Positions 2,147 to 59,074 of a stretch of DNA of 64,000 nt are shown in pieces (positions within the stretch are counted from its first letter, which is position 1; each line of letters begins with the position of its first letter). Made by a program: the position numbers and the translations under genes. The notes beneath the pieces are model-generated. The model was not told the DNA's origin. It made no database searches and worked only from the letters and a program-made list of their open reading frames with translations. The stretch is from a virus: UHGV virus genome UHGV-0072281; one strand, given 5' to 3'.

Positions 2147-4663
2147 ATGGAGGTGGACATGTTAAAAGTTGAACGTATTGTACTTAAAGGATTTACCGGA
2201 ATGGGGTTACACGAAATCGAAACCTTCGATTTTACTATCCATTCCCCGACCACCATTATCCTCGGTGGTAACGGCTGCGGTAAGACCAGTTTACTGTCCG
2301 TGTTTCTACCTATCGCACCTTCGAAATCCGAATTCCGTGACGGGGGTTCTTACACCAACATCTGTTTGGTTAACGACCATCGTTACAAGTTTAAGGTTGC
2401 GCGTAAAGGCAACTCACTGGTTTGCGATATCGAGAACCTGACGACGGGTACCAAAATCGTCGAACAAGGTAATGCGAAAGTGTATAACTCTCGTGTAGAA
2501 GAAATCACGGGTATTACAAAAGAGATTAAAGAGTTACTGAACGGAGAAGTGCTTTTAACGGATGCAGGAACGGAACTGCGTCGTAAGTGGTTCTACCGTT
2601 TAAGTACGTCAGACTTAACTTACGCGTTAGGTTTTTATCAACGTTTACGAAAAAACCTGACGATGTTAAACGGCGGTGTTGAAATCACCAGCCGCAAGAT
2701 TGCAGAGTTGCGCACTCGCGTGATTGATAACGAGGAAGAACGTCAGCAGTTAGCAACACGGTTAAAAGCATTAGAAGTAGATTTACGTGAACTCAACAAA
2801 CAGATTGAACAACTGCCGGGTCTGAATCGTGACGTTACGGCGGCAACGATTCAATCGCTATTGCTTAAAATCGAAGCACCGATTAATGCTATCTTGGAAC
2901 ACCGTGGCGGATTACCTACGGAAGAACAGGTAGAGGAAGCACGACGCGTTGAAGCCACTGCCCGTGAAGCGGTGGTCTCTGCTGAAACAGAACTGTCCAT
3001 GCTAAACAAAGATTTGTCTTTGTTGATGGACGAGTCTACCCGCCAAGATTACCTGATGCGGAATCACGAGGGGTTAAAGAACACGGTTGCAAAACTGCGT
3101 GAGTTATTAAAGCAGTGGGACACCGAACATCTTTTCCCTGAACTGTTTGCGGAGACCGTTAATATCGACCAGCTTAAAGCAGCGACAGATGCGCGTGTCT
3201 GGGGACAACGTTTAGGAACAACGCTGGATGCTATTAAATCAACGGAACGGTTGAACGTACTGGAAGAGAAACTGTTGACCTTAGACCAAAACTCATCTGG
3301 GTTGCGTGACCGACTACAACGCGTTGAAAACGTATTGCAGAACCTCAACCACGAACGGAATCACTATTTGGAAACCGCCGAGGTTGATTGTCCGCAGTGT
3401 CAATTTAAATTCCGTCCGGGTGTGCGTCGTTCTTTGCCTGAATTGGAAGAAGCCATTCGTGGACAAATGGAGCAACGTAATACGTTACAGACTCAGCTTG
3501 ATTCCGTATTGCGAGACCGTACGGAATTAGAGTCGGACGTTAACTACATGCGTCAAGTACGAGAAATCGTTTTAACGTACTCGAAAGACCCGGTATTGAG
3601 TTTGTTCTTTAAACGTCTCCAGGAGCGGAATGTCTTTACGGATAACCGCAGTCAATTCGGCAGTCTGTGCGCGGAGTTTGATCATGAACTTTATTCCGCA
3701 ATTGAATACCACGAAACGAAACACCGTTTTGCTAAAGCGGAAAAAGAGTGGGCAAACGCAGTTGCAGCGGTAGGTAACGTTGATGGCGCTCTACAGCAGA
3801 AAATTGCCTTCCAGCAGGAGCGTTTGGGTAAGGCGACAGAAACGCTCTCAGAGCGCCGTAGAGAGCACGCAGTTGCTAATGATACCTTTTGTTATCTAAA
3901 CGAACTTAAAGCCACTGTAGACAATTTTAATGCGGTTTTTGAGCGTTTAGAGAACGATGTTAAGGTAACATTAACCAACACAGTGGTCGAAACGTTATTA
4001 AACGCCCGAGAAAACAAGTTGGATGCGTTCACCACAGCACGGGAACGGTACCGTCAGATGGAAAACGAACTCAACCAACTTACTGCGTTAGAAAAGGAGT
4101 TATCGGATTTACAAGCGCAGCAATTCAATAACAAACTGATGATTCAAGCGTTCTCGCCCGAGAAAGGGGTATTACGCAAATACTTCTACAACGCTATCGT
4201 GAGAATCACAGAATTAATGACGCGGTATATCGAACAAGTCTGGACCTACCCTATGCGGGTCATGCCGTGTGACTTAACCGACGGTGACTTAGACTACACG
4301 TTCCCAGTGCAGTTAAAAACCCATCCTGAACCGGTACCTGACGTGCGGAAAGGGTCGAAAGCGCAGCGGGCCATCTTTAATTTGATGTTTCGTTTAACCG
4401 CTTACAAAGCCCTGAAACTTCATCAGTATCCGCTACTGTTGGATGAACCGTCAGAAGGGATGGATGAGGAACACCGAAATAACCTCGTCGGGTTTATTAA
4501 AACCCTGGCGAATTCCGGTGAGTTCTCTCAGTTACTGGTGGTATCTCACGAAGCAGAAATTCATTCAAAACTTAACGAAGCCGCATACTGTGTTATTGAA
4601 CCTGAAGGTATAACACTGCCTGCGGTATACAACGAGGGAGTAAAAATTGTCTACGCAAACTGA
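2147..4663 (+). CDS. Rad50/SbcC-like SMC-family recombination ATPase (T4 gp46-like)
   Basis: Walker A GGNGCGKTSLL near N-terminus; long coiled-coil-like middle with CPQC zinc-hook motif (~3389-3400); C-terminal Walker B/D-loop LLLDEPSEGMD. ORF track start 1982 rejected: it overlaps the upstream terminator; in-frame ATG at 2147 or 2159 preferred. Confidence 0.75.
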   Translation: MEVDMLKVERIVLKGFTGMGLHEIETFDFTIHSPTTIILGGNGCGKTSLLSVFLPIAPSKSEFRDGGSYTNICLVNDHRYKFKVARKGNSLVCDIENLTTGTKIVEQGNAKVYNSRVEEITGITKEIKELLNGEVLLTDAGTELRRKWFYRLSTSDLTYALGFYQRLRKNLTMLNGGVEITSRKIAELRTRVIDNEEERQQLATRLKALEVDLRELNKQIEQLPGLNRDVTAATIQSLLLKIEAPINAILEHRGGLPTEEQVEEARRVEATAREAVVSAETELSMLNKDLSLLMDESTRQDYLMRNHEGLKNTVAKLRELLKQWDTEHLFPELFAETVNIDQLKAATDARVWGQRLGTTLDAIKSTERLNVLEEKLLTLDQNSSGLRDRLQRVENVLQNLNHERNHYLETAEVDCPQCQFKFRPGVRRSLPELEEAIRGQMEQRNTLQTQLDSVLRDRTELESDVNYMRQVREIVLTYSKDPVLSLFFKRLQERNVFTDNRSQFGSLCAEFDHELYSAIEYHETKHRFAKAEKEWANAVAAVGNVDGALQQKIAFQQERLGKATETLSERRREHAVANDTFCYLNELKATVDNFNAVFERLENDVKVTLTNTVVETLLNARENKLDAFTTARERYRQMENELNQLTALEKELSDLQAQQFNNKLMIQAFSPEKGVLRKYFYNAIVRITELMTRYIEQVWTYPMRVMPCDLTDGDLDYTFPVQLKTHPEPVPDVRKGSKAQRAIFNLMFRLTAYKALKLHQYPLLLDEPSEGMDEEHRNNLVGFIKTLANSGEFSQLLVVSHEAEIHSKLNEAAYCVIEPEGITLPAVYNEGVKIVYAN

Positions 4664-6326: not shown

Positions 6327-6851
6327 ATGCTTACCTCACTCGGTAAGACCGTTATGCTAACGATACTTCCAGAATCGGTTATTGACAACGACCTGTTTAA
6401 CGCCCCTGAGCGCTTCAAGGTCGTTACGATAAATTGTGTAGGGGCAATGGGTCGGGGTATCGCTTTAGCGTGCAGAGAACGCTATCCTGGGCTTTATCAG
6501 GACTACCGAGAACGTTGCTTCGCTAACGAGATACGAATAGGGAATGTGTACGTTTATCCCGAGGAAAACTGCATTCTCTTACCAACTAAAACACATTGGA
6601 AACTGAAATCCCAGGTTTCTTATGTTATCGCGGGTATCACCGCGTTGGCAGATGCCGCAGAAAACTTAGAGGGTGGGGTGGCTTTACCGCCGTTAGGGAT
6701 GGCCAACGGTTGGTTGACAAAAGCTGAATGTCAACAAATCTTTTTGTTTATCGAAAAGAAACTCGTACCGAGGAGACAACAATACTGTTTCTATTTACCT
6801 GATCCGCTTTACCAAGAAGCAAAACCTTTAATTCCAAACCTTTTTAAATAG
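6327..6851 (+). CDS. macrodomain protein, TARG1/DarG-like (ADP-ribose-processing hydrolase)
   Basis: NDLFNAP...INCVGAMGRGIALA...LLPTKTHWKLK...LPPLGMANGW matches, from memory, the TARG1/DarG pattern GDLF..P...MGAGIA...ITKK..HK...MPRIGCGLD; alternative in-frame start at 6354. Confidence 0.6.
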   Translation: MLTSLGKTVMLTILPESVIDNDLFNAPERFKVVTINCVGAMGRGIALACRERYPGLYQDYRERCFANEIRIGNVYVYPEENCILLPTKTHWKLKSQVSYVIAGITALADAAENLEGGVALPPLGMANGWLTKAECQQIFLFIEKKLVPRRQQYCFYLPDPLYQEAKPLIPNLFK

Positions 6852-6858
6852 ATATTAT
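6849..6858 (+). promoter_or_regulatory. recurring motif TAGATATTAT (copy 1), candidate phage promoter element
   Basis: same 10-mer at 16321-16330 and near-identical CAGATATTAT at 25421-25430, each just upstream of a gene start. Confidence 0.2.
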
Positions 6859-6951
6859 CATTAGGGCACACAACAAAGGAGTACCAGCTGTCCGCGCCGT
6901 GATTTCGTTCTACGGAATACGGAAATGTATAAATCCAACTGGAGAACTAGT

Positions 6952-9684: not shown

Positions 9685-9718
9685 CCCTACTCCCGGAGGA
9701 GTAGGGTTAATTCTTTTT
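9685..9718 (+). terminator. terminator hairpin ccctactcc-cgga-ggagtaggg + T-run
   Basis: same stem recurs at 10298 and 29620. Confidence 0.6.
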
Positions 9719-10286: not shown

Positions 10287-10297
10287 AATAAAAGCTA

Positions 10298-10332
10298 CCC
10301 TACTCCTTTTCGGGAGTAGGGTAATTTCTTTT
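10298..10332. terminator. bidirectional terminator between convergent genes (ccctactcc ttttcg ggagtaggg)
   Basis: hairpin flanked by T-rich on both strands; lies between + gene end 10286 and - gene end 10331. Confidence 0.6.
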
Positions 10333-15655: not shown

Positions 15656-16323
15656 TGCTGATTGTTTTTAGTCAAGCGTTATCGATGGCACCGAGTTATA
15701 TCCAGATACGCTTTTCAGCAATTGCGCGTCAGCAGTGGGGCTTTAAAGCCCCCTATTCTGACGATCACTATACACTCGGTGAAGTAGCACTTGAACTTGC
15801 TTTACGTTCATTGTGGGAAATCATTGCATTATACAATGCAGGTTGTGATATACCGAAAGATTGTTTCCCACAGCGGGTGATTGCACAAAGCACTACGAAC
15901 ACTTACGGTAATCCGGCATTGGTAGAAGAGTGCTTAGGCTACGCTAACCAATCCGGGGAACTGCAACACAACTTTAATCTGGTGATTAACAAAGTCTGGA
16001 GTGAGTTGGAAAGCTACCCTGAAAAGATTATCTGGTTTGATCGTAACCAATTCGTTAAGGAGGCGGCCAGTAAACGACCCGTACGTTTAGTTGCCTTAAA
16101 GCCCACCGACCTTGATTTGAAACAAACGTATCCCTTCCCGGAAGAAATTCGACTTTCTCCAGAAACCGTAGGACACACTATTTTCAAACAAGGTGACGCC
16201 TGGATACTTCCTCACGATCTAGACCGTTTCCTGCTCAACTCCGATCAGATTCACTCCGGCTATGATTCTCTCGTGAAAGAGTTTCACATCGATCCCTATT
16301 TCGCTAAAAATTTTCTTAGATAG
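15652..16323 (+). CDS. hypothetical protein
   Basis: 223-aa ORF, coupled overlap with upstream gene. Confidence 0.5.
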   Translation: MMLIVFSQALSMAPSYIQIRFSAIARQQWGFKAPYSDDHYTLGEVALELALRSLWEIIALYNAGCDIPKDCFPQRVIAQSTTNTYGNPALVEECLGYANQSGELQHNFNLVINKVWSELESYPEKIIWFDRNQFVKEAASKRPVRLVALKPTDLDLKQTYPFPEEIRLSPETVGHTIFKQGDAWILPHDLDRFLLNSDQIHSGYDSLVKEFHIDPYFAKNFLR

Positions 16324-16330
16324 ATATTAT
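16321..16330 (+). promoter_or_regulatory. recurring motif TAGATATTAT (copy 2)
   Basis: overlaps stop codon of upstream gene, about 30 bp before next ATG. Confidence 0.2.
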
Positions 16331-16360
16331 TCAGGTGTAGAACCCTCGGAGTTAATCACC

Positions 16361-18656: not shown

Positions 18657-18662
18657 TACACA

Positions 18663-18694
18663 CCCTAGCTTCGGCTAGGGTTACTTTATATTTA
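18663..18694 (+). terminator. rho-independent terminator (ccctagc ttcg gctaggg + T-rich)
   Basis: 7-bp stem, TTCG loop. Confidence 0.55.
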
Positions 18695-18715
18695 ACCATT
18701 TTAGGAGAATATACC

Positions 18716-19648
18716 ATGTATTTGTACAAAAGTAAAAAAGTAAAAGGTATTAAAGACTGCCTTAGACAAATGGGGAGTCAGCATCTAGAAAATGTCATGG
18801 AAGAAAATCAAACAAAAGAAAATCCTGTCTCGAAATGGATAAAAAAGAATCGTAATCATCTAACCAATAGCTTTATACCGTATAATGAAGATTTAGGTCT
18901 CAAAGATCCACGTTCCCTTCACGCTCAAACATTGGCAATTGGATGGCTATACGGTGGTTCTTCCTTAATATCCGATCGAGCACTTAGAGAACTTGTTTTT
19001 GAGACTGAGATGCCCAGTAAATTCCCTGAAGAGTGGTTAGACTTTATACCTACTTGGACTGTAGCAATCGATGTAGGTAAAGAAGATGAGACTTTCTTTC
19101 TCGGCTATCGAAAAAATGGGAAGAGAAGGTTTATTATAATTGCTACAAATACTGATTACGGGTTAACAGAAGGCGTTACCACGATTGCCACTTGTTCGTT
19201 AGAGCTTCGTAGTGCAGGAAACGGACTTGTGGAAATCGACTATGCCGACGGTGTGGAGAACGAACAAGAAAAGATGCTATGGTTATCTCTGGCCAAAGCC
19301 GCCACATCGATGATATTTCTGTGCACCCTAATCCCACCTAATCTCAAAGCGTCTTACAATGACGTTAAGTTCAAAGAAATCAAAAAGAACGGCAGTATTA
19401 GCTACGAAGTCAAACCACGTGAACGTGATGTTAAAGTGGATATCACACCAGGACAAGTAAAATATCTGAAAGGATTCAACACCGACTTGAAAGCCATGCA
19501 AGGTATCAAACACGCTAAAGCTGCGCACATTCGTCGTGCCCACTGGCGTAGATACTGGGTTGGCCCAAGAAACGGTGAAAGAAAAAGAAAACTTTGCTGG
19601 ATTCCACCGACATTTGTTCGCGGCTACGTACCCCACACGCAAGACTAG
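18716..19648 (+). CDS. hypothetical protein, paralog family B, conserved basic C-terminal HIRRAHWRR motif
   Basis: C-terminus KAAHIRRAHWRRYWVGP...W.PP.F; internal LGWLYGG..ISD segment shared with next gene. Confidence 0.55.
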   Translation: MYLYKSKKVKGIKDCLRQMGSQHLENVMEENQTKENPVSKWIKKNRNHLTNSFIPYNEDLGLKDPRSLHAQTLAIGWLYGGSSLISDRALRELVFETEMPSKFPEEWLDFIPTWTVAIDVGKEDETFFLGYRKNGKRRFIIIATNTDYGLTEGVTTIATCSLELRSAGNGLVEIDYADGVENEQEKMLWLSLAKAATSMIFLCTLIPPNLKASYNDVKFKEIKKNGSISYEVKPRERDVKVDITPGQVKYLKGFNTDLKAMQGIKHAKAAHIRRAHWRRYWVGPRNGERKRKLCWIPPTFVRGYVPHTQD

Positions 19649-20543: not shown

Positions 20544-20560
20544 CGTGAAAATAAAGATTA

Positions 20561-20607
20561 CCCCTAGACCTTGTGGTCTAGGGGTAGCTTTTACTTTTTA
20601 TTTTTTG
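20561..20607. terminator. bidirectional terminator (cccctagacc ttgt ggtctagggg + T-run) between convergent genes
   Basis: perfect 10-bp stem; T-run overlaps stop of minus gene. Confidence 0.6.
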
Positions 20608-21353
20608 TTTGCCTTCAGAGCTTTCAGGCGTTCAGCCGTCACGTTCAGACATTCAATCAATTCGTTCACCTGTTTCATGAACAAACCAAACAGTTCAACC
20701 CAATCGGATGCAAAGTCTAACATCGCTGTCAGTTCTTTTGCCACGTTAGGATGAATGTTTTGTTCAGACAGAATCGTTGCAGAGGCTTTAATAGACTCGA
20801 TGGATTTGTCGATGTTCGTACGAAGTTTCTTCGTGATTTCAACGTTCAGTGCTTTTGCGCGGTTAAACGCAATATCGATCTCCGTAGCACTGTGGTACGT
20901 TTTCTCAATCGGGCGCTGGTCAATAACGTTGTTGGTGTAAGACTTAGCCAACTGGTTAACCAGGTCTTTCGGATTCACGTTACGTAACGGAATGTTAACG
21001 TTTTTATAACGGAAACCGATAGGTAATGACAGTACGCCCACATCATGTGTAAGGGCGGAAAGTTGCAACTCAACAGGTAAAAGGACACCGTCGTAGATCT
21101 TCTGTAGGGAACTCCACACCGATTCTAAGCGGTTAATGTGATCCATTACATAGGTATTGAAGCCTGGCGGTACAATAACCAACATGCCTGCAAAGTGTAA
21201 GAATTTTTCCTGTTGCATCCACTTGGAAACGTCTGACATGTCGTCGTAAGTGGTTAATGCAATCTCTTGTTGAGGGCCACTGAACCCTTTGGGTAAGATT
21301 GCAGACGCTTTAGCGGCAAAGCTAGTTAACGCTGCAAGTGGATTTACGTTCAT
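20598..21353 (-). CDS. hypothetical protein
   Basis: 251-aa minus-strand ORF, divergent from the recombinase operon. Confidence 0.5.
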   Translation of the reverse strand: MNVNPLAALTSFAAKASAILPKGFSGPQQEIALTTYDDMSDVSKWMQQEKFLHFAGMLVIVPPGFNTYVMDHINRLESVWSSLQKIYDGVLLPVELQLSALTHDVGVLSLPIGFRYKNVNIPLRNVNPKDLVNQLAKSYTNNVIDQRPIEKTYHSATEIDIAFNRAKALNVEITKKLRTNIDKSIESIKASATILSEQNIHPNVAKELTAMLDFASDWVELFGLFMKQVNELIECLNVTAERLKALKANKK

Positions 21354-21450
21354 TTAAAACCTCGGATTATAAGTCAGGGTTACATAGTAAAGTCTTTTTA
21401 CAGTTCATCCTGAACTTATGACCGAGATTATCTCACAAAGGTAAAGCTCG

Positions 21451-21765: not shown

Positions 21766-23262
21766 ATGGCAGGCCCAACTAAGCAAGTTATCGGTGAAGT
21801 AATTCGTCCTCGTTTTAACGTTTATACCATCATGGACCACGCCTTAGGCAACTACGAAAGAGGCGAAGATGGTTTATACTACCTTAACGGTGGTTTTGCC
21901 CACATCATGGGTTTCGCGGGTCGTGGTAACACCTTCAAATCCACACTGTTGGATTTCTGTATCTTCCAAATCCTGCAACGCTATAAAGCAGAGTGGGGTT
22001 CGAAATACGATACCGAAGTGTCTGCTGCCCTCGATCGCTTAGAGACCGGTTATATTTCTGCCATGCACGCCAACGGTATTGACGATGGAACTTCGGTACT
22101 GGAACTTATTCACGAAGGTCGTTATAACCTCGTTGGTTCTGACGTGATGCCCGGGGAACAGTATTACAGTGACTATATTCGTGATGAAGTGGAAAAACGC
22201 TTCAAGCAGTATATGTCTGGTAAAACGCGTGTAACGCCGTTCCTTGACCCGGTTCGTCGTAAGCAAAAAGAAATCCTTGACCCGTGGCTGTATTCTATCG
22301 ACTCCCTGTCGGAGTGGCACTCGTCTTCTCTGGAAGACAAGCACGCTAAAACGGATATCGGTGATTCCGATCAGAACATCCTCAACGCCCACGACGCCTT
22401 ACAGAAATCGAACATGATGAGCCGTTGGCCGTCTGCGTTTGCCCGTGGTGGTTTCTACATGGGCTTTGTTGCACAGATGGCCGATGACTCCGGTAAGGCG
22501 ATGGCGGGCGGTCGTCAAGGGCAGAAAGCAAACGCGAAACTGCTGGACGATGCGAACGACGATCTCAAATTCGCAGGGATTCCTCGTCGTCAGTTAAGCT
22601 TCCTGACTAACTCGTTTATTGTTGCGACAAAATCAGGCGAGCTGAAAAAAGACCAGAGTTATAACGCCCAGACCGGTGTTAACGAAGAACTTTACCCAAC
22701 CGCACGTTCAAAAGCCATGAACGCATCGGTTAACGACCTGAAAGTTATCACCTTTACGCAGTACCGTGCTAAAGGTGGACACACGGGTGTGAAGTTCCAG
22801 ATGATCTTCTCGCAAGAGATGGGTCTACTGTACCACCTGAGCCTGTGGCATTACCTGAGTGACACTCTGAAAAAATCCGAATTTGGATTTACATCCAGCG
22901 GTAGCGGTGGTTCCATTAAAGAACTCCAGATTCTTCCTGGAGTTAAATTCCAGCGTACGACGATTCGCGACATGATCGACGATAACCCGAAACTGCGTCG
23001 GGCGTTAGAAATCACGGCCGCGATTGCGTACATGCAGAACAACTACCATCGTTTAGAGGTTAAATACCACCTCACGATGGAAGAAATCTACAAACTCATT
23101 GATGAAAAATGGGATTGGAATGAGATTCTGGAGAACACCGTAGAATACTGGATGTTTAAAGACCAAGAAACGAAAGGTGGTAAACGCACGTTAACTGCCC
23201 GTACGATTCTGGGTATGGTCGTGGACGGCCTGGAACCGAAGTTCCTCACCAAAAAGAAATAA
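21766..23262 (+). CDS. UvsX/RecA-like recombinase (divergent)
   Basis: unusual P-loop FAGRGNTFKS parallels T4 UvsX AGPSKSFKS (recalled); Walker-B-like LYSIDSLS; DIGDSD and AMAGGRQ parallel RecA EIGDSHMG and UvsX MGGGTG. Confidence 0.6.
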   Translation: MAGPTKQVIGEVIRPRFNVYTIMDHALGNYERGEDGLYYLNGGFAHIMGFAGRGNTFKSTLLDFCIFQILQRYKAEWGSKYDTEVSAALDRLETGYISAMHANGIDDGTSVLELIHEGRYNLVGSDVMPGEQYYSDYIRDEVEKRFKQYMSGKTRVTPFLDPVRRKQKEILDPWLYSIDSLSEWHSSSLEDKHAKTDIGDSDQNILNAHDALQKSNMMSRWPSAFARGGFYMGFVAQMADDSGKAMAGGRQGQKANAKLLDDANDDLKFAGIPRRQLSFLTNSFIVATKSGELKKDQSYNAQTGVNEELYPTARSKAMNASVNDLKVITFTQYRAKGGHTGVKFQMIFSQEMGLLYHLSLWHYLSDTLKKSEFGFTSSGSGGSIKELQILPGVKFQRTTIRDMIDDNPKLRRALEITAAIAYMQNNYHRLEVKYHLTMEEIYKLIDEKWDWNEILENTVEYWMFKDQETKGGKRTLTARTILGMVVDGLEPKFLTKKK

Positions 23263-23270
23263 AAGCGTTA

Positions 23271-23291
23271 GGGTAGGGGATTACCCTACCC
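23271..23291 (+). other. intergenic stem-loop (gggtaggg gatta ccctaccc) without U-tract, directly before RBS
   Basis: read from sequence; may be processing/stability element or weak terminator. Confidence 0.3.
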
Positions 23292-23307
23292 TAGCTAAGG
23301 AGTCGTT

Positions 23308-23607
23308 ATGCGTTATCAAACGGAGATTGTGGAGCGCTTAAGCGAAGGTTTAGCCAGCGTCAGTCTGGAAACAGCAGCGGCATTTCGTGAGACTTTCGCT
23401 ACTTTCTTTCCCGATCGTGAATCTTTTTGTTTAAAGGTCGGTGAATATTATTCCAAGTTACTCGAACACTACGGTTACCCGCCGGTGAAATTCGACGTAC
23501 CTGAAAACACCGACGACATCAGTTATTGGATTGAAACCCTCGAAGCAGGGACACTTTCCAACTTGCGTAAGGCGGTAGAAAATGAAACTCGATCCAGCGC
23601 GGCGTAA
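23308..23607 (+). CDS. hypothetical small protein
   Basis: 99-aa ORF with AAGGAG RBS. Confidence 0.5.
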   Translation: MRYQTEIVERLSEGLASVSLETAAAFRETFATFFPDRESFCLKVGEYYSKLLEHYGYPPVKFDVPENTDDISYWIETLEAGTLSNLRKAVENETRSSAA

Positions 23608-24250
23608 AAAAGCAGAAGCTTACGCCTTACAAATCTTAAACCTGGTTGACCCCTCTGGGATTAACGCAGAGGCAGCAAAGAAAGCTTTTGCTCGAATGAC
23701 AGACGAACAGTTTAATCGTCTTCGTGAAGGGCTACCGATTTACAACCCGGTTGGCAGTAAAGTTAAAATAGACCACATGCGAAACGTTGAGCTATGTCGC
23801 GTTTTAGGTCTGAACCTGGAACAGCGGTTGTGGTTAACTGAGCCGAAAACGGGTGTTTTCCATCGTACCCGCTACCCACATCTGGTATTGCGCTTGCCTG
23901 CGCGTCGACAAACGCAGATGCAAGAAAAGAAAATGGCAGTAGCGAAGAACGACAAAGTTCGTGATAAACTCTCCGGTCAGGTTGTGGGTCCTTCTAAAGC
24001 ATCAGGTGTATCTTTCCCAGAAGCGTACATCATGTACTCGGATGGCCACGACTGGACACTGAAAGAGTTTCTGTGGGCGCGTGGGGGTAACGAAGCGTTA
24101 CAACGTGCGTTCTATCAATCGTTACGTCAAACCGGTAAGGGACGTATTGACCTACCAGGGGCAGAACGTACCAGTTCAAAAGCAACACGTACCTGGTCTG
24201 CGTATCTGAAAGCGATGCACATTGGTAACAACATAGGCCATCCGTCATGA
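23582..24250 (+). CDS. hypothetical protein
   Basis: 222-aa ORF, overlaps upstream by 26 nt. Confidence 0.45.
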   Translation: MKLDPARRKKAEAYALQILNLVDPSGINAEAAKKAFARMTDEQFNRLREGLPIYNPVGSKVKIDHMRNVELCRVLGLNLEQRLWLTEPKTGVFHRTRYPHLVLRLPARRQTQMQEKKMAVAKNDKVRDKLSGQVVGPSKASGVSFPEAYIMYSDGHDWTLKEFLWARGGNEALQRAFYQSLRQTGKGRIDLPGAERTSSKATRTWSAYLKAMHIGNNIGHPS

Positions 24251-24969
24251 GATTTTCTCGACGTTTTTTGATTGATATCGATGCGTTGTTTGACACCCGA
24301 ATCGGTTGGGTCAAAGCCATCAAACCTGAAAGATTGGAAATTATGGATTACGACGTTTATCGTCGTCGTTTTACGGAGGAATGGGCGACTGTCTTGGGGT
24401 TTGAGAATTGGAAAGAGGAGTATCAGAAACGCGATAAACGCGCGTTGATGAATGCGGAACCCACCGAACTGTTGTTGACGATGAAGAACGAATTCGAATG
24501 TATGTTACTCGAAATCGAGATGCATTCGCCTATCGAAAAACCGACACTGACGATCAACACCTGGCCGTATACTGACCTTACTGACCAAGAAATGCAAACG
24601 TTCTTGCAGATGTTCCGTATCTATTACGATATGGTGCAGGTTGAGTTAGTGTCGTGGCCGCATTCGGAGCTTACGCCAGGTCGTTTAGCGACAGCTTGGG
24701 ATTGTTGGATAATGTACGATTGGTTCGAGTGGATTGAACTCAATGCGAAACATCTGAAAAAGCCTATCCCTAGCTTTACCATTACGCACCCTGCCCTGCT
24801 AACGCCGGAACTTACAAAAGAGACGGTAGAGCAGCTTAAACGCGATGGTGTGAATCCGTTCAAGGAACACATCCGGTTTATGGCAGAGTGGGTCGGTGTC
24901 GACCCACGTGATTCTGCGTTATTTAGTCTGGCTCGTCCGAAGAAGGACGCGCAAACGCCGCAGTCATAA
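24247..24969 (+). CDS. hypothetical protein
   Basis: 240-aa ORF, ATGA coupling. Confidence 0.5.
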   Translation: MRFSRRFLIDIDALFDTRIGWVKAIKPERLEIMDYDVYRRRFTEEWATVLGFENWKEEYQKRDKRALMNAEPTELLLTMKNEFECMLLEIEMHSPIEKPTLTINTWPYTDLTDQEMQTFLQMFRIYYDMVQVELVSWPHSELTPGRLATAWDCWIMYDWFEWIELNAKHLKKPIPSFTITHPALLTPELTKETVEQLKRDGVNPFKEHIRFMAEWVGVDPRDSALFSLARPKKDAQTPQS

Positions 24970-25387
24970 TGGACTTCACGTCAATTTGTTCGCCAACCGG
25001 AGCCAACTCCCCTTCCGAGATTTCTACGTTAGGAATGTCTGGAAGGGTGGGTTGGTAACCATTATTTTCATCAGGTTCTTCGTCGTGACGTTTTATTTTC
25101 ACGTTACCGCGTTGCATCAGAATTGTATTCAGTGCGTTAGCCAAGTCTTGGTTCGCCTCACTGTTTTTCTGGGCAGCGGCAACACGTCGTTTAGAAATGA
25201 TCTGCTTATCTAGGTCGTTTAATAACGTCCCGATACGATCCACGGTCTTTAAGTCTTTGTGAGCATTAGGATCGTCTAAGATTAGATTGACAATTCTGAC
25301 ACGGGCTTGTTGCGTTTGGCGGAGAAGCGATTCTTCGTCGTCTACTTCACCATCTAACGCCTGGTATTTCACTTCTTCTTCAGCCAT
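24923..25387 (-). CDS. acidic hypothetical protein
   Basis: 154-aa ORF with strong GAGGTGG RBS on minus strand; 3' end overlaps convergent + gene by about 47 nt. Confidence 0.45.
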   Translation of the reverse strand: MAEEEVKYQALDGEVDDEESLLRQTQQARVRIVNLILDDPNAHKDLKTVDRIGTLLNDLDKQIISKRRVAAAQKNSEANQDLANALNTILMQRGNVKIKRHDEEPDENNGYQPTLPDIPNVEISEGELAPVGEQIDVKSIMTAAFARPSSDEPD

Positions 25388-25420
25388 TTAAAACCACCTC
25401 ATTTTCAAAAAGAAGTCAGA

Positions 25421-25430
25421 CAGATATTAT
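25421..25430 (+). promoter_or_regulatory. recurring motif CAGATATTAT (copy 3) in divergent intergenic region
   Basis: same core AGATATTAT as copies at 6849 and 16321. Confidence 0.2.
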
Positions 25431-25459
25431 TTACGTGAGACATTCTTTCGGAGTGAATT

Positions 25460-26008
25460 ATGTTTACAGGATTAATAACACGTTTTAAGAAACGTCTACA
25501 GCAAAAGCGTTTACAGGCTCTCAGAGAGTCTCTAAGGCAGGAGTTTCATAAGAACATCCATAACCCCTGCGCGAGAACGTTTAGCGGCTTACGGTTGCTT
25601 ACGTTGCCTATAAACGTAGATACCGAACCCTACCACCCCAGCTTACGTGGTAATCTCGAGTTACGTATCGCTAATCTCGATATTCTTTACCAACGTCTTG
25701 CTTTTTATATCAACGAATACCAACGCACGATTAATGGAACCTCTATCGAGTGGTTATCATTGCCAGAGTCGTTAAGTAAACAAAAAGACTCATCAGAAAA
25801 CCGCTGGTTAGACACTTATTTTGGGACGTCCAATCCGGCGGTTGCCTATTATAAGCTAACGCAGTTACTCGAGCTTATCGAACCTTACGAAGACATTTTC
25901 TTAAAGCCCAAGACCGATGAAGATCGGGCATTGGTAAATCACTGTGCACATTTGTTTCGTGAAATGGAGGTACTCATCGAACACTACCTTTTAAACCGAC
26001 CTGTTTAA
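25460..26008 (+). CDS. hypothetical protein
   Basis: 182-aa ORF. Confidence 0.5.
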   Translation: MFTGLITRFKKRLQQKRLQALRESLRQEFHKNIHNPCARTFSGLRLLTLPINVDTEPYHPSLRGNLELRIANLDILYQRLAFYINEYQRTINGTSIEWLSLPESLSKQKDSSENRWLDTYFGTSNPAVAYYKLTQLLELIEPYEDIFLKPKTDEDRALVNHCAHLFREMEVLIEHYLLNRPV

Positions 26009-29619: not shown

Positions 29620-29660
29620 CTACCCTACTCCTAGACAGGAGTAGGGTATTTTCATTTTTT
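29620..29660 (+). terminator. terminator hairpin taccctactcc tagaca ggagtagggta + T-run
   Basis: third copy of the ccctactcc/ggagtaggg stem family. Confidence 0.6.
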
Positions 29661-33649: not shown

Positions 33650-33666
33650 TCGATGAGGTTGGTTGT

Positions 33667-33837
33667 ATGGAAGAATTAGAGACAGTTTCCTGTTACATTC
33701 CTAGAAGACGCGTTATAAAAGAATGTTACATCGATAAAATTTTAATCTCTCGTATCAAGAAAGGTCCACGAAAACATCGAACCAAGAAAGTGTTTATTTA
33801 TAAACACTTCGAAAAGGTTCTAATCCGACCTTACTGA
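33667..33837 (+). CDS. tiny basic protein with KKGPRKHR motif (paralog 1 of 3)
   Basis: hand-translated MEELETVSCYIPRRRVIKECYIDKILISRIKKGPRKHRTKKVFIYKHFEKVLIRPY; GAGG RBS. Confidence 0.35.
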   Translation: MEELETVSCYIPRRRVIKECYIDKILISRIKKGPRKHRTKKVFIYKHFEKVLIRPY

Positions 33838-33865
33838 TTAAATTAACTCATGGAGTAAATTTGTT

Positions 33866-34063
33866 ATGCTGAACGATGTTCTTAGTTTCTCGATAATGTA
33901 TTTCGAACCGAAGAAATTCCGTACCATTGTTACACGTTGTCGGAAAGGGCCGCGTAAAGGACGTAAACGTTTCCAAGTAATTCAACTTTCTTATTCTGCG
34001 CTCCTTGAAGCTAACCCATTCGAGATGAAACCTAATGAAGAAACCGGATTTACTCAACATTGA
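33866..34063 (+). CDS. small basic protein with RKGPRKGRKR motif (paralog 2 of 3)
   Basis: IVTRCRKGPRKGRKRFQV aligns with ILISRIKKGPRKHRTKKVF of the preceding ORF. Confidence 0.4.
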   Translation: MLNDVLSFSIMYFEPKKFRTIVTRCRKGPRKGRKRFQVIQLSYSALLEANPFEMKPNEETGFTQH

Positions 34064-34274
34064 TTACGTGATCGGCGGTATAATCCTCGTCGGATATGCC
34101 CGCAAACGTAAAGGGCCCGGCAGCAACAAATTCTTCGGTAAACGTGTTGTAAAATCAATGGCATGTCTCAGACCGCAGAAATATTGGCCCCTAATGTACT
34201 TCAATAGTATGCACGATGCGGCCGACAAACGTATGGCTCTGTGTATAAGAAAATTAGAGGGTAAAAATGACTGA
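34035..34274 (+). CDS. small basic protein with RKRKGPGS motif (paralog 3 of 3)
   Basis: ILVGYARKRKGPGSNKFFGKRVV shares the [KR]KGP[RG] core. Confidence 0.4.
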   Translation: MKKPDLLNIDYVIGGIILVGYARKRKGPGSNKFFGKRVVKSMACLRPQKYWPLMYFNSMHDAADKRMALCIRKLEGKND

Positions 34275-34410
34275 AGAAGTTAAAGTAGAAACCATTAAAG
34301 AATCTGACGAATTTGCAATCCCTGGCTTAGACCCGGAAACAACCGTAGAGAAGGGTGCTGACCCAACTACGGAAGACGATAACTGCTCAGGCGGGGCTTG
34401 CAAAATTTAA
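34267..34410 (+). CDS. tiny acidic peptide (47 aa) ending CSGGACKI
   Basis: hand-translated; GAGGG RBS 6 nt upstream; followed by terminator. Confidence 0.3.
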   Translation: MTEEVKVETIKESDEFAIPGLDPETTVEKGADPTTEDDNCSGGACKI

Positions 34411-34418
34411 CAGTTCAT

Positions 34419-34458
34419 GGGGTGCTTATGTAGCACCCCTAATCCTTATTCTTTTTGT
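34419..34458 (+). terminator. rho-independent terminator (ggggtgct tatgt agcacccc + T-rich)
   Basis: 8-bp stem. Confidence 0.5.
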
Positions 34459-34478
34459 TAATCTAATGGAGTTTTAAA

Positions 34479-35309: not shown

Positions 35310-35317
35310 ATAAAAGT

Positions 35318-35370
35318 ACCTACCTCCTTTCGGAGGTAGGTTAACTTTCTTATTTTTTTTTCTTTTTTTT
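35318..35370. terminator. bidirectional terminator (acctacctcc tttcg ggaggtaggt + long T-run), repeat copy 1
   Basis: near-identical element at 59033-59074; sits between convergent gene ends. Confidence 0.65.
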
Positions 35371-56189: not shown

Positions 56190-56282
56190 ACCCTATTGAA
56201 AAATATCTCAGATATATATTACTTAGGTGAGCGTTGTAGAATTACACGCTATTCGACTTGTTAACCTAAAGGAGTATTAAAG

Positions 56283-59026: not shown

Positions 59027-59032
59027 AAAAGT

Positions 59033-59074
59033 ACCTACCTCCTTTACGGAGGTAGGTAAACTTATTTTTTTCTT
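59033..59074. terminator. bidirectional terminator (acctacctcc tttac ggaggtaggt + T-run), repeat copy 2
   Basis: about 45-bp near-identical copy of the 35318 element. Confidence 0.65.

Follow-up and report, generated by a model that had tools for sequence, protein, structure and literature searches.

Two convergent genes and their shared 3′ ends

We analysed a 64,000-nucleotide (nt) stretch of the virus genome UHGV-0072281, here called the window, and focused on a junction at which two convergent genes, gene A on the − strand and gene B on the + strand, run into each other tail to tail. DNA and protein searches place the window in the SPN3US-like jumbo phage group, and we take its source, on sequence grounds, to be an SPN3US-like nucleus-forming jumbo phage. 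Relatives belong to Seoulvirus, Erskinevirus, Machinavirus, Wellingtonvirus and Derbicusvirus, with nucleotide identity to the window of ~65–78%; the nearest are 220–228 kb contigs from Shigella and other assemblies, with protein identity of 81–86%. A preliminary description of the sequence had reported a 47-nt tail-to-tail overlap of the two genes, and our coordinates agree with it:

24247–24969, + strand: gene B, homolog of SPN3US gp219; 240 amino acids (aa), ATG start, TAA stop at 24967–24969
24923–25387, − strand: gene A, homolog of SPN3US gp220; 154 aa, ATG start, TAA stop at 24923–24925
24923–24969, both strands: doubly coding stretch of 47 nt, tail to tail
25394–25400, − strand: Shine-Dalgarno (S-D) sequence GAGGTGG of gene A, read from the sequence, 6 nt before the ATG

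The strong ribosome binding site attributed to gene A is thus present, and its product is acidic, as had been stated, with an isoelectric point of 4.54 (31 D+E versus 18 K+R).

Both open reading frames (ORFs) are genes, as the same description assumed: each has a full-length family match and a bias of substitutions towards third codon positions. Gene B matches PHROG 3328, the family of SPN3US gp219 and phiKZ ORF147 (E = 9.3e-82, residues 1–235), and encodes a protein ~59% identical to SPN3US gp219. It lies directly 3′ of the gene for the C-terminal fragment of the virion RNA polymerase (vRNAP) beta subunit, as members of this family do, and its ATG overlaps the stop codon of that gene (ATGA). 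Gene A matches PHROG 5894, the SPN3US gp220 family (E = 3.8e-57, residues 3–152 of 154), and its product is 61% identical to SPN3US gp220. Against relatives that are ~75% identical in DNA, substitutions at codon positions 1/2/3 number 31/17/120 in gene B and 15/6/69 in gene A.

Homologs of gene B occur in 185 phage records across the phiKZ-like phages. The amber mutant am30 (Q91am) shows that gp219 is essential in SPN3US; phiKZ ORF147 is given as its homolog, and gp219 was not detected in virions (PMC5105663). The phiKZ transposon paper does not mention ORF147. Gene B gave no Pfam or NCBIfam match; the predicted structure has a mean confidence score (pLDDT) of 83, falling below 50 at residues 234–239. 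We considered and rejected an assignment of the protein as a HAD-superfamily phosphatase or 5′(3′)-deoxyribonucleotidase: the catalytic motif I, DxDx(T/V), is not conserved, since the columns that read D10-I-D12 in the window hold C, N, V, F or E in the family, and the only invariant residues are D16, R18 and G20. The predicted fold is at most distantly HAD-like or deoxyribonucleotidase-like. The gp219 family may represent a catalytically dead HAD-like protein that has been kept across nucleus-forming phages.

Gene A is the sole reverse-strand gene inside a forward-strand block. A lone reverse gene between gp219 and gp221 homologs is shared by 16 phage records and by metagenomic and assembly contigs, and the reverse orientation of gene A is kept in every relative examined, distant ones included. 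Homologs were found in 62 phage records by tblastn and in 38 protein clusters by a word-indexed search, and a profile search recovered 91 representative clusters, nearly all of 125–190 aa; none was detectable in phiKZ, and phiKZ-type phages are without gene A. Three linear motifs are invariant (EEVKYQAFDG, GYQP and EGELAPVGE.IDV..IM..AF.RP). An AlphaFold model (pLDDT 61) shows long helices at residues 18–38 and 46–93, a short C-terminal helix and low-confidence ends; it is too weak for a fold search, and Pfam, NCBIfam and PDB sequence searches returned nothing significant. We regard gene A as an ancient single gene that is invariably in reverse orientation and encodes a small, acidic, helical product.

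Two annotation matters concern the same gene. A 105-aa ORF on the + strand (24896–25213), inside gene A, is probably a chance frame. Similarly, in the phiEaH2 locus (L002, NC_019929), an intact gp220-family gene at 2995–3465 is absent from the record's annotation, which instead has an 894-nt ORF on the opposite strand across it (G173_gp142); this is probably a mis-annotation.

The 47-nt overlap encodes the last 15 codons and the stop of gene B (SLARPKKDAQTPQS) and, on the other strand, the last 15 codons and the stop of gene A (IMTAAFARPSSDEPD). The frames are phased such that first codon positions lie opposite each other and the third position of each gene lies opposite the second position of the other; hence, no change within the overlap is silent in both genes. 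The gene B stop (TAA or TGA) falls inside the conserved Ile-Met codons of gene A, and the gene A stop falls inside the conserved Phe-Ser codons of gene B. According to the alignment, the doubly coded part of gene B is the variable tail after the ...LFSL sequence, which includes the poorly modelled residues 234–239. The corresponding part of gene A is the end that follows the short conserved helix IM..AF, with low model confidence at residues 149–154. The window differs from its relatives at 8–9 of the 47 positions, including a 5-nt block in the centre that has been replaced. We detected no extra nucleotide conservation in the overlap, with divergence of 17–19% compared to 18–25% in the flanks.

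A convergent junction without a terminator

No terminator had been seen between the two genes in the preliminary description, and we likewise found no terminator-like site in positions 24900–24990 by consensus scan, folding or perfect-stem scan. Folding of this segment is close to that of shuffled sequence (z = −0.25 on the + strand, −1.23 on the − strand), and both hallmarks of a bidirectional terminator, a GC-rich hairpin of ~9–13 base pairs (bp) and flanking A and T runs, are absent. The other solid convergent junctions of the window (10287–10330, 20544–20597, 35310–35368 and 59027–59072) all have a hairpin: in each of the four, a perfect GC-rich stem of 10–13 bp lies between an A run and a T run, with folding energies of −22 to −30 kcal/mol and z-scores of −4.2 to −6.2.

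We went through the whole SPN3US annotation and scanned its 17 convergent junctions between coding sequences. Fifteen have a gap of 37–133 nt with a 9–13 bp hairpin and A/T runs, the A run making up 4–13 of 15 bases and the T run 5–12 of 15, mostly at least 7. The two exceptions are gp219/gp220, which is the sole overlap, and a junction that involves a doubtful 43-aa ORF. At gp219/gp220 the best stem is 8 bp, and A/T runs are lacking (A count 1 upstream, T count 1 downstream). SPN3US genes 219 and 220 (JN641803: 190428–191156 and complement 191104–191574) therefore resemble genes B and A in orthology, neighbours, orientation, tail-to-tail overlap and lack of a terminator, and differ in the length of the overlap (53 versus 47 nt), in the tail sequences and in the stem (8 bp versus 5 bp plus 2). 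The annotated SPN3US coordinates overlap, but we found no discussion of this in the literature searched. Regarding expression of gp219/gp220, nothing was found in PMC5694885, and the supplements of PMC5105663 mention SPN3US_0220 for a passenger single-nucleotide polymorphism only.

As a separate observation, the terminator hairpins at 9685–9706, 10296–10323, 20559–20586, 23269–23293, 29621–29648, 35318–35341 and 59032–59058 have in common a stem sequence and not shape alone. This sequence is TACCCTACTCC, TACCTACCTCC or TACCCCTAGACC, and the pattern TACCYWMYYCC occurs 7 times where 0.6 occurrences would be expected. Similar stems also occur in SPN3US terminators, CTACCCTCTCC, CCTACCTCCCC and ACCCTACTCCC among them. 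The shared stem could act as a termination signal recognised by its sequence, or could reflect a family of dispersed repeats.

The tail-to-tail overlap is present in all 24 closer relatives examined, with lengths of 4–56 nt. For 22 of the 24 genomes, overlaps come from a stop-to-stop ORF search that makes no use of annotation; independent gene calls show them as well:

47 nt: the window and close relatives; SPAsTU
53 nt: SPN3US
35 nt: pEa_SNUABM_29
56 nt: phiEaH2, Asesino
50 nt: Huxley, SNUABM_6
56, 53 and 56 nt: Caitlin, ChrisDB and SNUABM_4, respectively
50 and 53 nt: Wellington and SNUABM_11, respectively
23 nt: CR5, EarlPhillipIV, Phobos
20 nt: Vibrio phage pVa-21 (gene A product 24% identical)
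35, 53 and 44 nt: three metagenomic or assembly contigs
4 and 14 nt: two further relatives

The length is 2 mod 3 in all but the 4-nt case (by one count, in 22 of the 23 longer overlaps), and the relative reading frames are kept; therefore, length has been altered by in-frame insertions and deletions alone. In three distant relatives (L037, L038 and L036), the same pair of genes is apart by 47, 54 and 80 nt, respectively, and the gap has a strong hairpin. Synteny in these three runs from the reverse gene, identified by profile matches to gene A, through the gene B homolog and the vRNAP fragment to the UvsX-like gene. Given that these distant relatives insulate the pair, the overlap is not required for the pair to function; on comparative sequence evidence, we regard it as a clade-level state, not a requirement. 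In phiKZ-type phages the gene facing gene B is a tail gene, and the two are 133 nt apart in KTN4 and 42 nt apart in Noxifer.

In many relatives, the overlap includes an inverted repeat, CGTCC-N3-12-GGACG, which corresponds to the facing Arg-Pro codons of the two proteins. The stem is CGTCC-N6-GGACG in the window (5 bp plus 2), 8–9 bp long in SPN3US, SPAsTU and SNUABM_11, and formed by CTTCGG/CCGAAG in Erskinevirus. In 22 genomes, we compared the minimum free energy of the overlap, extended by 12 nt on either side, with that of every other segment of the two genes. No consistent RNA structure emerged: ranks ranged from 0.01 to 0.97, the overlap being in the top 1–6% in five genomes and ordinary (0.2–0.97) in most. 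At gathering scores, Rfam returned no family for the window, and a search of positions 23000–26000 gave a chance-level match only.

Possible starts and ends of transcripts

Gene order around the junction corresponds to SPN3US genes 216–223:

21766–23262, + strand: UvsX-like gene
23308–23607, + strand: gp217 homolog
23582–24250, + strand: gp218 homolog, vRNAP beta C-terminal fragment; matches PHROG 3233 ‘RNA polymerase beta subunit’
beyond gene A, + strand: gp221–223 homologs, the first gene at 25460–26008

Gene B ends the forward run of UvsX-like, gp217, gp218 and gp219 homologs. In SPN3US, gp218 constitutes the C-terminal fragment of the vRNAP beta subunit (PMC5105663). The following features bear on where transcripts from either side of the junction could start and end:

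29621–29648, + strand: first + strand terminator beyond gene B; 12 bp stem TACCCTACTCC..., then a T run
24871–24908, − strand: invariant block of 38 nt, with 0 differences from ~75%-identical relatives (mean 5 per 20 nt)
24888–24907, − strand: hairpin in the invariant block; 8 bp stem, 4-nt loop, −15.2 kcal/mol
23269–23293 (23255–23293 with the T run), − strand: hairpin, terminator candidate; 10 bp, flagged by the terminator scan
25407–25437, + strand: promoter-like motif AAAAAGAAGTCAGACAGATATTAT-TTACGT-G, facing away from gene A, toward the gene at 25460–26008

A hairpin scan of the whole window revealed no stem of at least 8 bp on the + strand between 24907 and 29621. Forward transcription from gene B is therefore expected to continue in antisense over the full length of gene A before it meets a terminator.

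In the reverse direction, the hairpin at 24888–24907 lies inside gene B, 16 nt past the gene A stop codon, and has no U tract. The 50 nt after the gene A stop fold to −20.4, compared to a null minimum of −16.3, and are the best-folding 50-nt window of both genes. The same is true of SPN3US, but not of most other relatives. Hence, we consider the hairpin a candidate 3′-end element of the gene A transcript, judged by its sequence and position. SPN3US also has a hairpin at the equivalent place, and in contig L035 a hairpin 12 nt past the stop precedes the sequence TTTTAT.

The first canonical terminator met by − strand transcription is the hairpin at 23269–23293, which separates the UvsX-like gene from the gp217 homolog and lies 1.63 kb downstream of gene A. 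It has a T-rich run on the − strand only (on the + strand, the A count upstream is 9 and the T count downstream is 4), and a hairpin at this place is kept in all 16 phage relatives. However, this T run also encodes the Lys-Lys-Lys-stop with which the UvsX-like gene ends, and the polarity of the hairpin may be incidental for this reason. On the + strand the hairpin is followed directly by the S-D sequence of the next gene. The corresponding hairpin in SPN3US, SNUABM_29 and phiEaH2 has T runs on both sides.

The 72-nt divergent spacer 5′ of gene A contains the block AAAAAGAAcTCAGACAGATATTATcT, which has hardly changed among four genera whose genes are ~65% identical. The start of transcription predicted from it is G25437, 23 nt upstream of the ATG at 25460. 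The promoter-like block recurs at 56199–56225 on the + strand, behind a terminator and without a divergent gene, where 0.01 matches would be expected by chance; with its full motif, this further site spans 56199–56229. Weaker copies are found at 6844–6870, 16316–16340 and 21424–21440, all on the + strand in intergenic spacers, and the general motif of these + strand, intergenic sites is AAAAA.A..TCAGA.A.ATATTAT-N6-G. The core ATATTAT-TTACGT-G at 25407–25437, with the A-rich stretch that precedes it, fits the early promoter consensus of the AR9 virion RNA polymerase, AAATATATATTAT-(6N)-G (PMC5312081). The block is thus possibly an outward-facing + strand promoter for the gene at 25460–26008, putatively of early type, and the AR9-like motif copies are candidate early promoters of this phage group.

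In AR9, divergent spacers pair an early promoter with a non-early promoter of the opposite orientation (PMC5312081). What the spacer of gene A shares with those of AR9 is ATATTAT-N6-G, preceded by an A-rich part and directed away from gene A. It is unlike them in that the start is predicted from sequence and that no late-type motif was recognised for gene A; AR9 is, moreover, a distant Bacillus phage. We recognised no conserved motif on the − strand of the spacer that could serve as a gene A promoter, and we attribute the conserved block to the putative outward-facing + strand promoter instead. In the CR5 group, the spacer is only 29–31 nt long. The number of sigma-70 promoters in the window is not above chance, and such promoters are probably irrelevant for this phage type. 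The presence of a putative outward-facing early-type promoter 5′ of gene A suggests that gene A belongs to another expression class than its neighbour.

Readings of the junction

We think it probable that the two genes have come to lie end to end without the usual terminator, that the overlap itself is tolerated compaction, and that un-insulated convergent transcription is a real consequence of this layout, probably tolerated by virtue of timing or strength of expression. Under this reading, a spacer with a bidirectional terminator would have been lost in this clade, such that the two reading frames ran into each other. Each frame would then end at the first stop that the codons of its partner allow, gene B in the Ile-Met of gene A and gene A in the Phe-Ser of gene B, and only the weakly constrained, low-confidence C-terminal tails would be doubly encoded. 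Forward transcription past gene B would run antisense through all of gene A, with no terminator before 29621. Reverse transcription of gene A would run antisense into gene B, either stopping at 24888–24907 or continuing for 1.6 kb to 23293–23255. Such read-through could be tolerated if the units are expressed at different times or levels, and whatever interference resulted would be incidental or, at most, fine-tuning. Transcript extents, temporal separation and terminator loss as the origin of the overlap are what we infer, and not what we observe.

The preliminary description had taken the layout to imply an overlap of antisense transcripts. At the level of sequence this is sound, because the junction is an exception to the terminator rule, and the transcripts could overlap over far more than 47 nt; on the − strand, there is no hairpin with a T run before 23293. 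By contrast, we do not favour its further suggestion of mutual regulation. The overlap is 19% divergent, compared to 21–25% in the flanks, its length drifts from 4 to 56 nt, there is no consistent RNA structure, and three distant relatives separate the pair with a strong hairpin.

Several points weigh against simple tolerance. The overlap has never been resolved to a gap in the 24 genomes, down to ~24% identity of gene A, and such persistence could mean selection for the terminator-less state. The invariant 38-nt block and its hairpin point to some constraint at the nucleotide level beside the junction, as far as sequence comparison can tell, and the small inverted repeat CGTCC...GGACG recurs in many relatives. 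In addition, transcript ends and timing are predictions from sequence, and our literature search found no transcriptome of this phage or of SPN3US.

An alternative, which we regard as a real but minor possibility, is that the junction is a selected device, in which polymerase collision or sense-antisense RNA pairing makes expression of gene A and of the forward module (gp217, the vRNAP fragment, gp219 and read-through into gene A) mutually exclusive, as a temporal switch. In support of this, the junction is the only convergent one without a terminator in the window and SPN3US (that with the doubtful ORF aside), the terminator-less state persists in 24 genomes, and gene A keeps its reverse orientation in all relatives, distant ones included. 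The first canonical − strand terminator, moreover, is 1.6 kb downstream at a conserved position, and a putative outward-facing early-type promoter occupies the upstream region of gene A. In its most specific form, read-through from the vRNAP fragment and gp219 would silence gene A, an antisense 3′ extension, perhaps as far as 23293–23269, would damp gp217, gp218 and gp219, and the 24888–24907 hairpin would set the length of the antisense RNA; we consider this elaborated version unlikely. Against a selected device of either form, the pair is apart, with a strong hairpin, in the three distant relatives; the overlap shows no extra sequence conservation and drifts in length; and the T run of the distal hairpin is also Lys-Lys-Lys-stop coding.

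It is rather improbable that the weak hairpin in the overlap acts as a bidirectional stop embedded in coding sequence, or as a processing signal, for the phage RNA polymerases. An inverted repeat is indeed found in most relatives, with arms that differ between genera, and the overlap folds better than 96–99% of the other segments of the same genes in the window itself, SPN3US, SPAsTU and phiEaH2. However, its rank is 0.2–0.97 in ~15 of 22 genomes, including CR5, pVa-21, Caitlin and ChrisDB; stems of 5 bp are expected by chance; A/T runs are missing, as is evident from the SPN3US counts given above; and the conserved Arg-Pro codons of both proteins also explain the arms. The hairpin is also much weaker than the terminators of this genome (−22 to −30 kcal/mol). 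That one ORF is real and the other a chance open frame on the opposite strand, as long antisense ORFs can be, has nothing further in its favour and is extremely improbable: in addition to the family matches and substitution bias of both, the two ORFs are kept in length and sequence down to 24–40% identity, the gene B ortholog is essential in SPN3US, and gene A has a strong ribosome binding site and invariant motifs.

Convergent overlaps between genes of prokaryotes and phages are usually attributed to 3′ extension of a gene whose stop codon has been lost or shifted. The overlap of genes A and B is like these in that it involves tens of shared bases, affects the least constrained parts of the proteins and varies in length among relatives. 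It is unlike them in that it replaces a near-obligatory terminator and is stable across several genera. Cis-antisense or convergent control is exemplified by the Listeria excludons and by lambda oop/cII, for which reciprocal expression and an RNA or interference mechanism have been demonstrated. The layout here is similar, with convergent units that overlap at their 3′ ends and a potential for collision or RNA duplex formation. In contrast to those systems, the A/B junction is known from its layout, and distant relatives insulate the pair.

Convergent 3′ overlap is thus a known arrangement, and the layout here is mildly unusual for its genome. What our analysis adds is that the junction is a single exception to a near-universal terminator rule, that this state is kept across several genera, and that distant relatives are insulated. 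Both ORFs merit annotation, and the reverse gene can now be assigned to a precise family with a conserved context. The junction also offers a clean natural test case for how the RNA polymerases of giant phages deal with un-insulated convergent units. In nucleus-forming phages, transcription and translation are physically separated; should the lack of a terminator turn out to be functional, the junction would illustrate antisense control in such a phage in a simple form.

In phiKZ, convergent genes are separated by bidirectional terminators, and single-gene units occur inside clusters of the opposite strand (PHIKZ153, PHIKZ_p52 and PHIKZ169) (PMC10914365). Gene A is comparable, as a lone reverse gene in a forward block of a Chimalliviridae genome in which bidirectional terminators are the rule. 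However, the phiKZ units are described as flanked by their own start and terminator, whereas gene A lacks a dedicated terminator and runs into its neighbour. The window has a second lone reverse gene, 3.5 kb from gene A (20598–21353, − strand, 251 aa), which, unlike gene A, has a proper bidirectional terminator at its 3′ end (20559–20586). Judged by size and position alone, we take this gene to be homologous to SPN3US gp214, the counterpart of the essential phiKZ head protein ORF153 (PMC5105663).

Two further features of the window lie away from the junction. In a crude map of ORFs of 60 aa, three stretches of 570–880 nt are free of ORFs (1411–1981, 18657–19535 and 33650–34478) in a genome that is otherwise tightly packed; these may hold small genes or non-coding elements. 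Lastly, the sequence CCTAAAGGAG or CCTAAAGAGG is repeated just 5′ of the + strand starts at 934, 8208, 8741, 29681 and 56283. The repeat is longer by far than a plain S-D sequence, and could be part of a promoter or translation signal.

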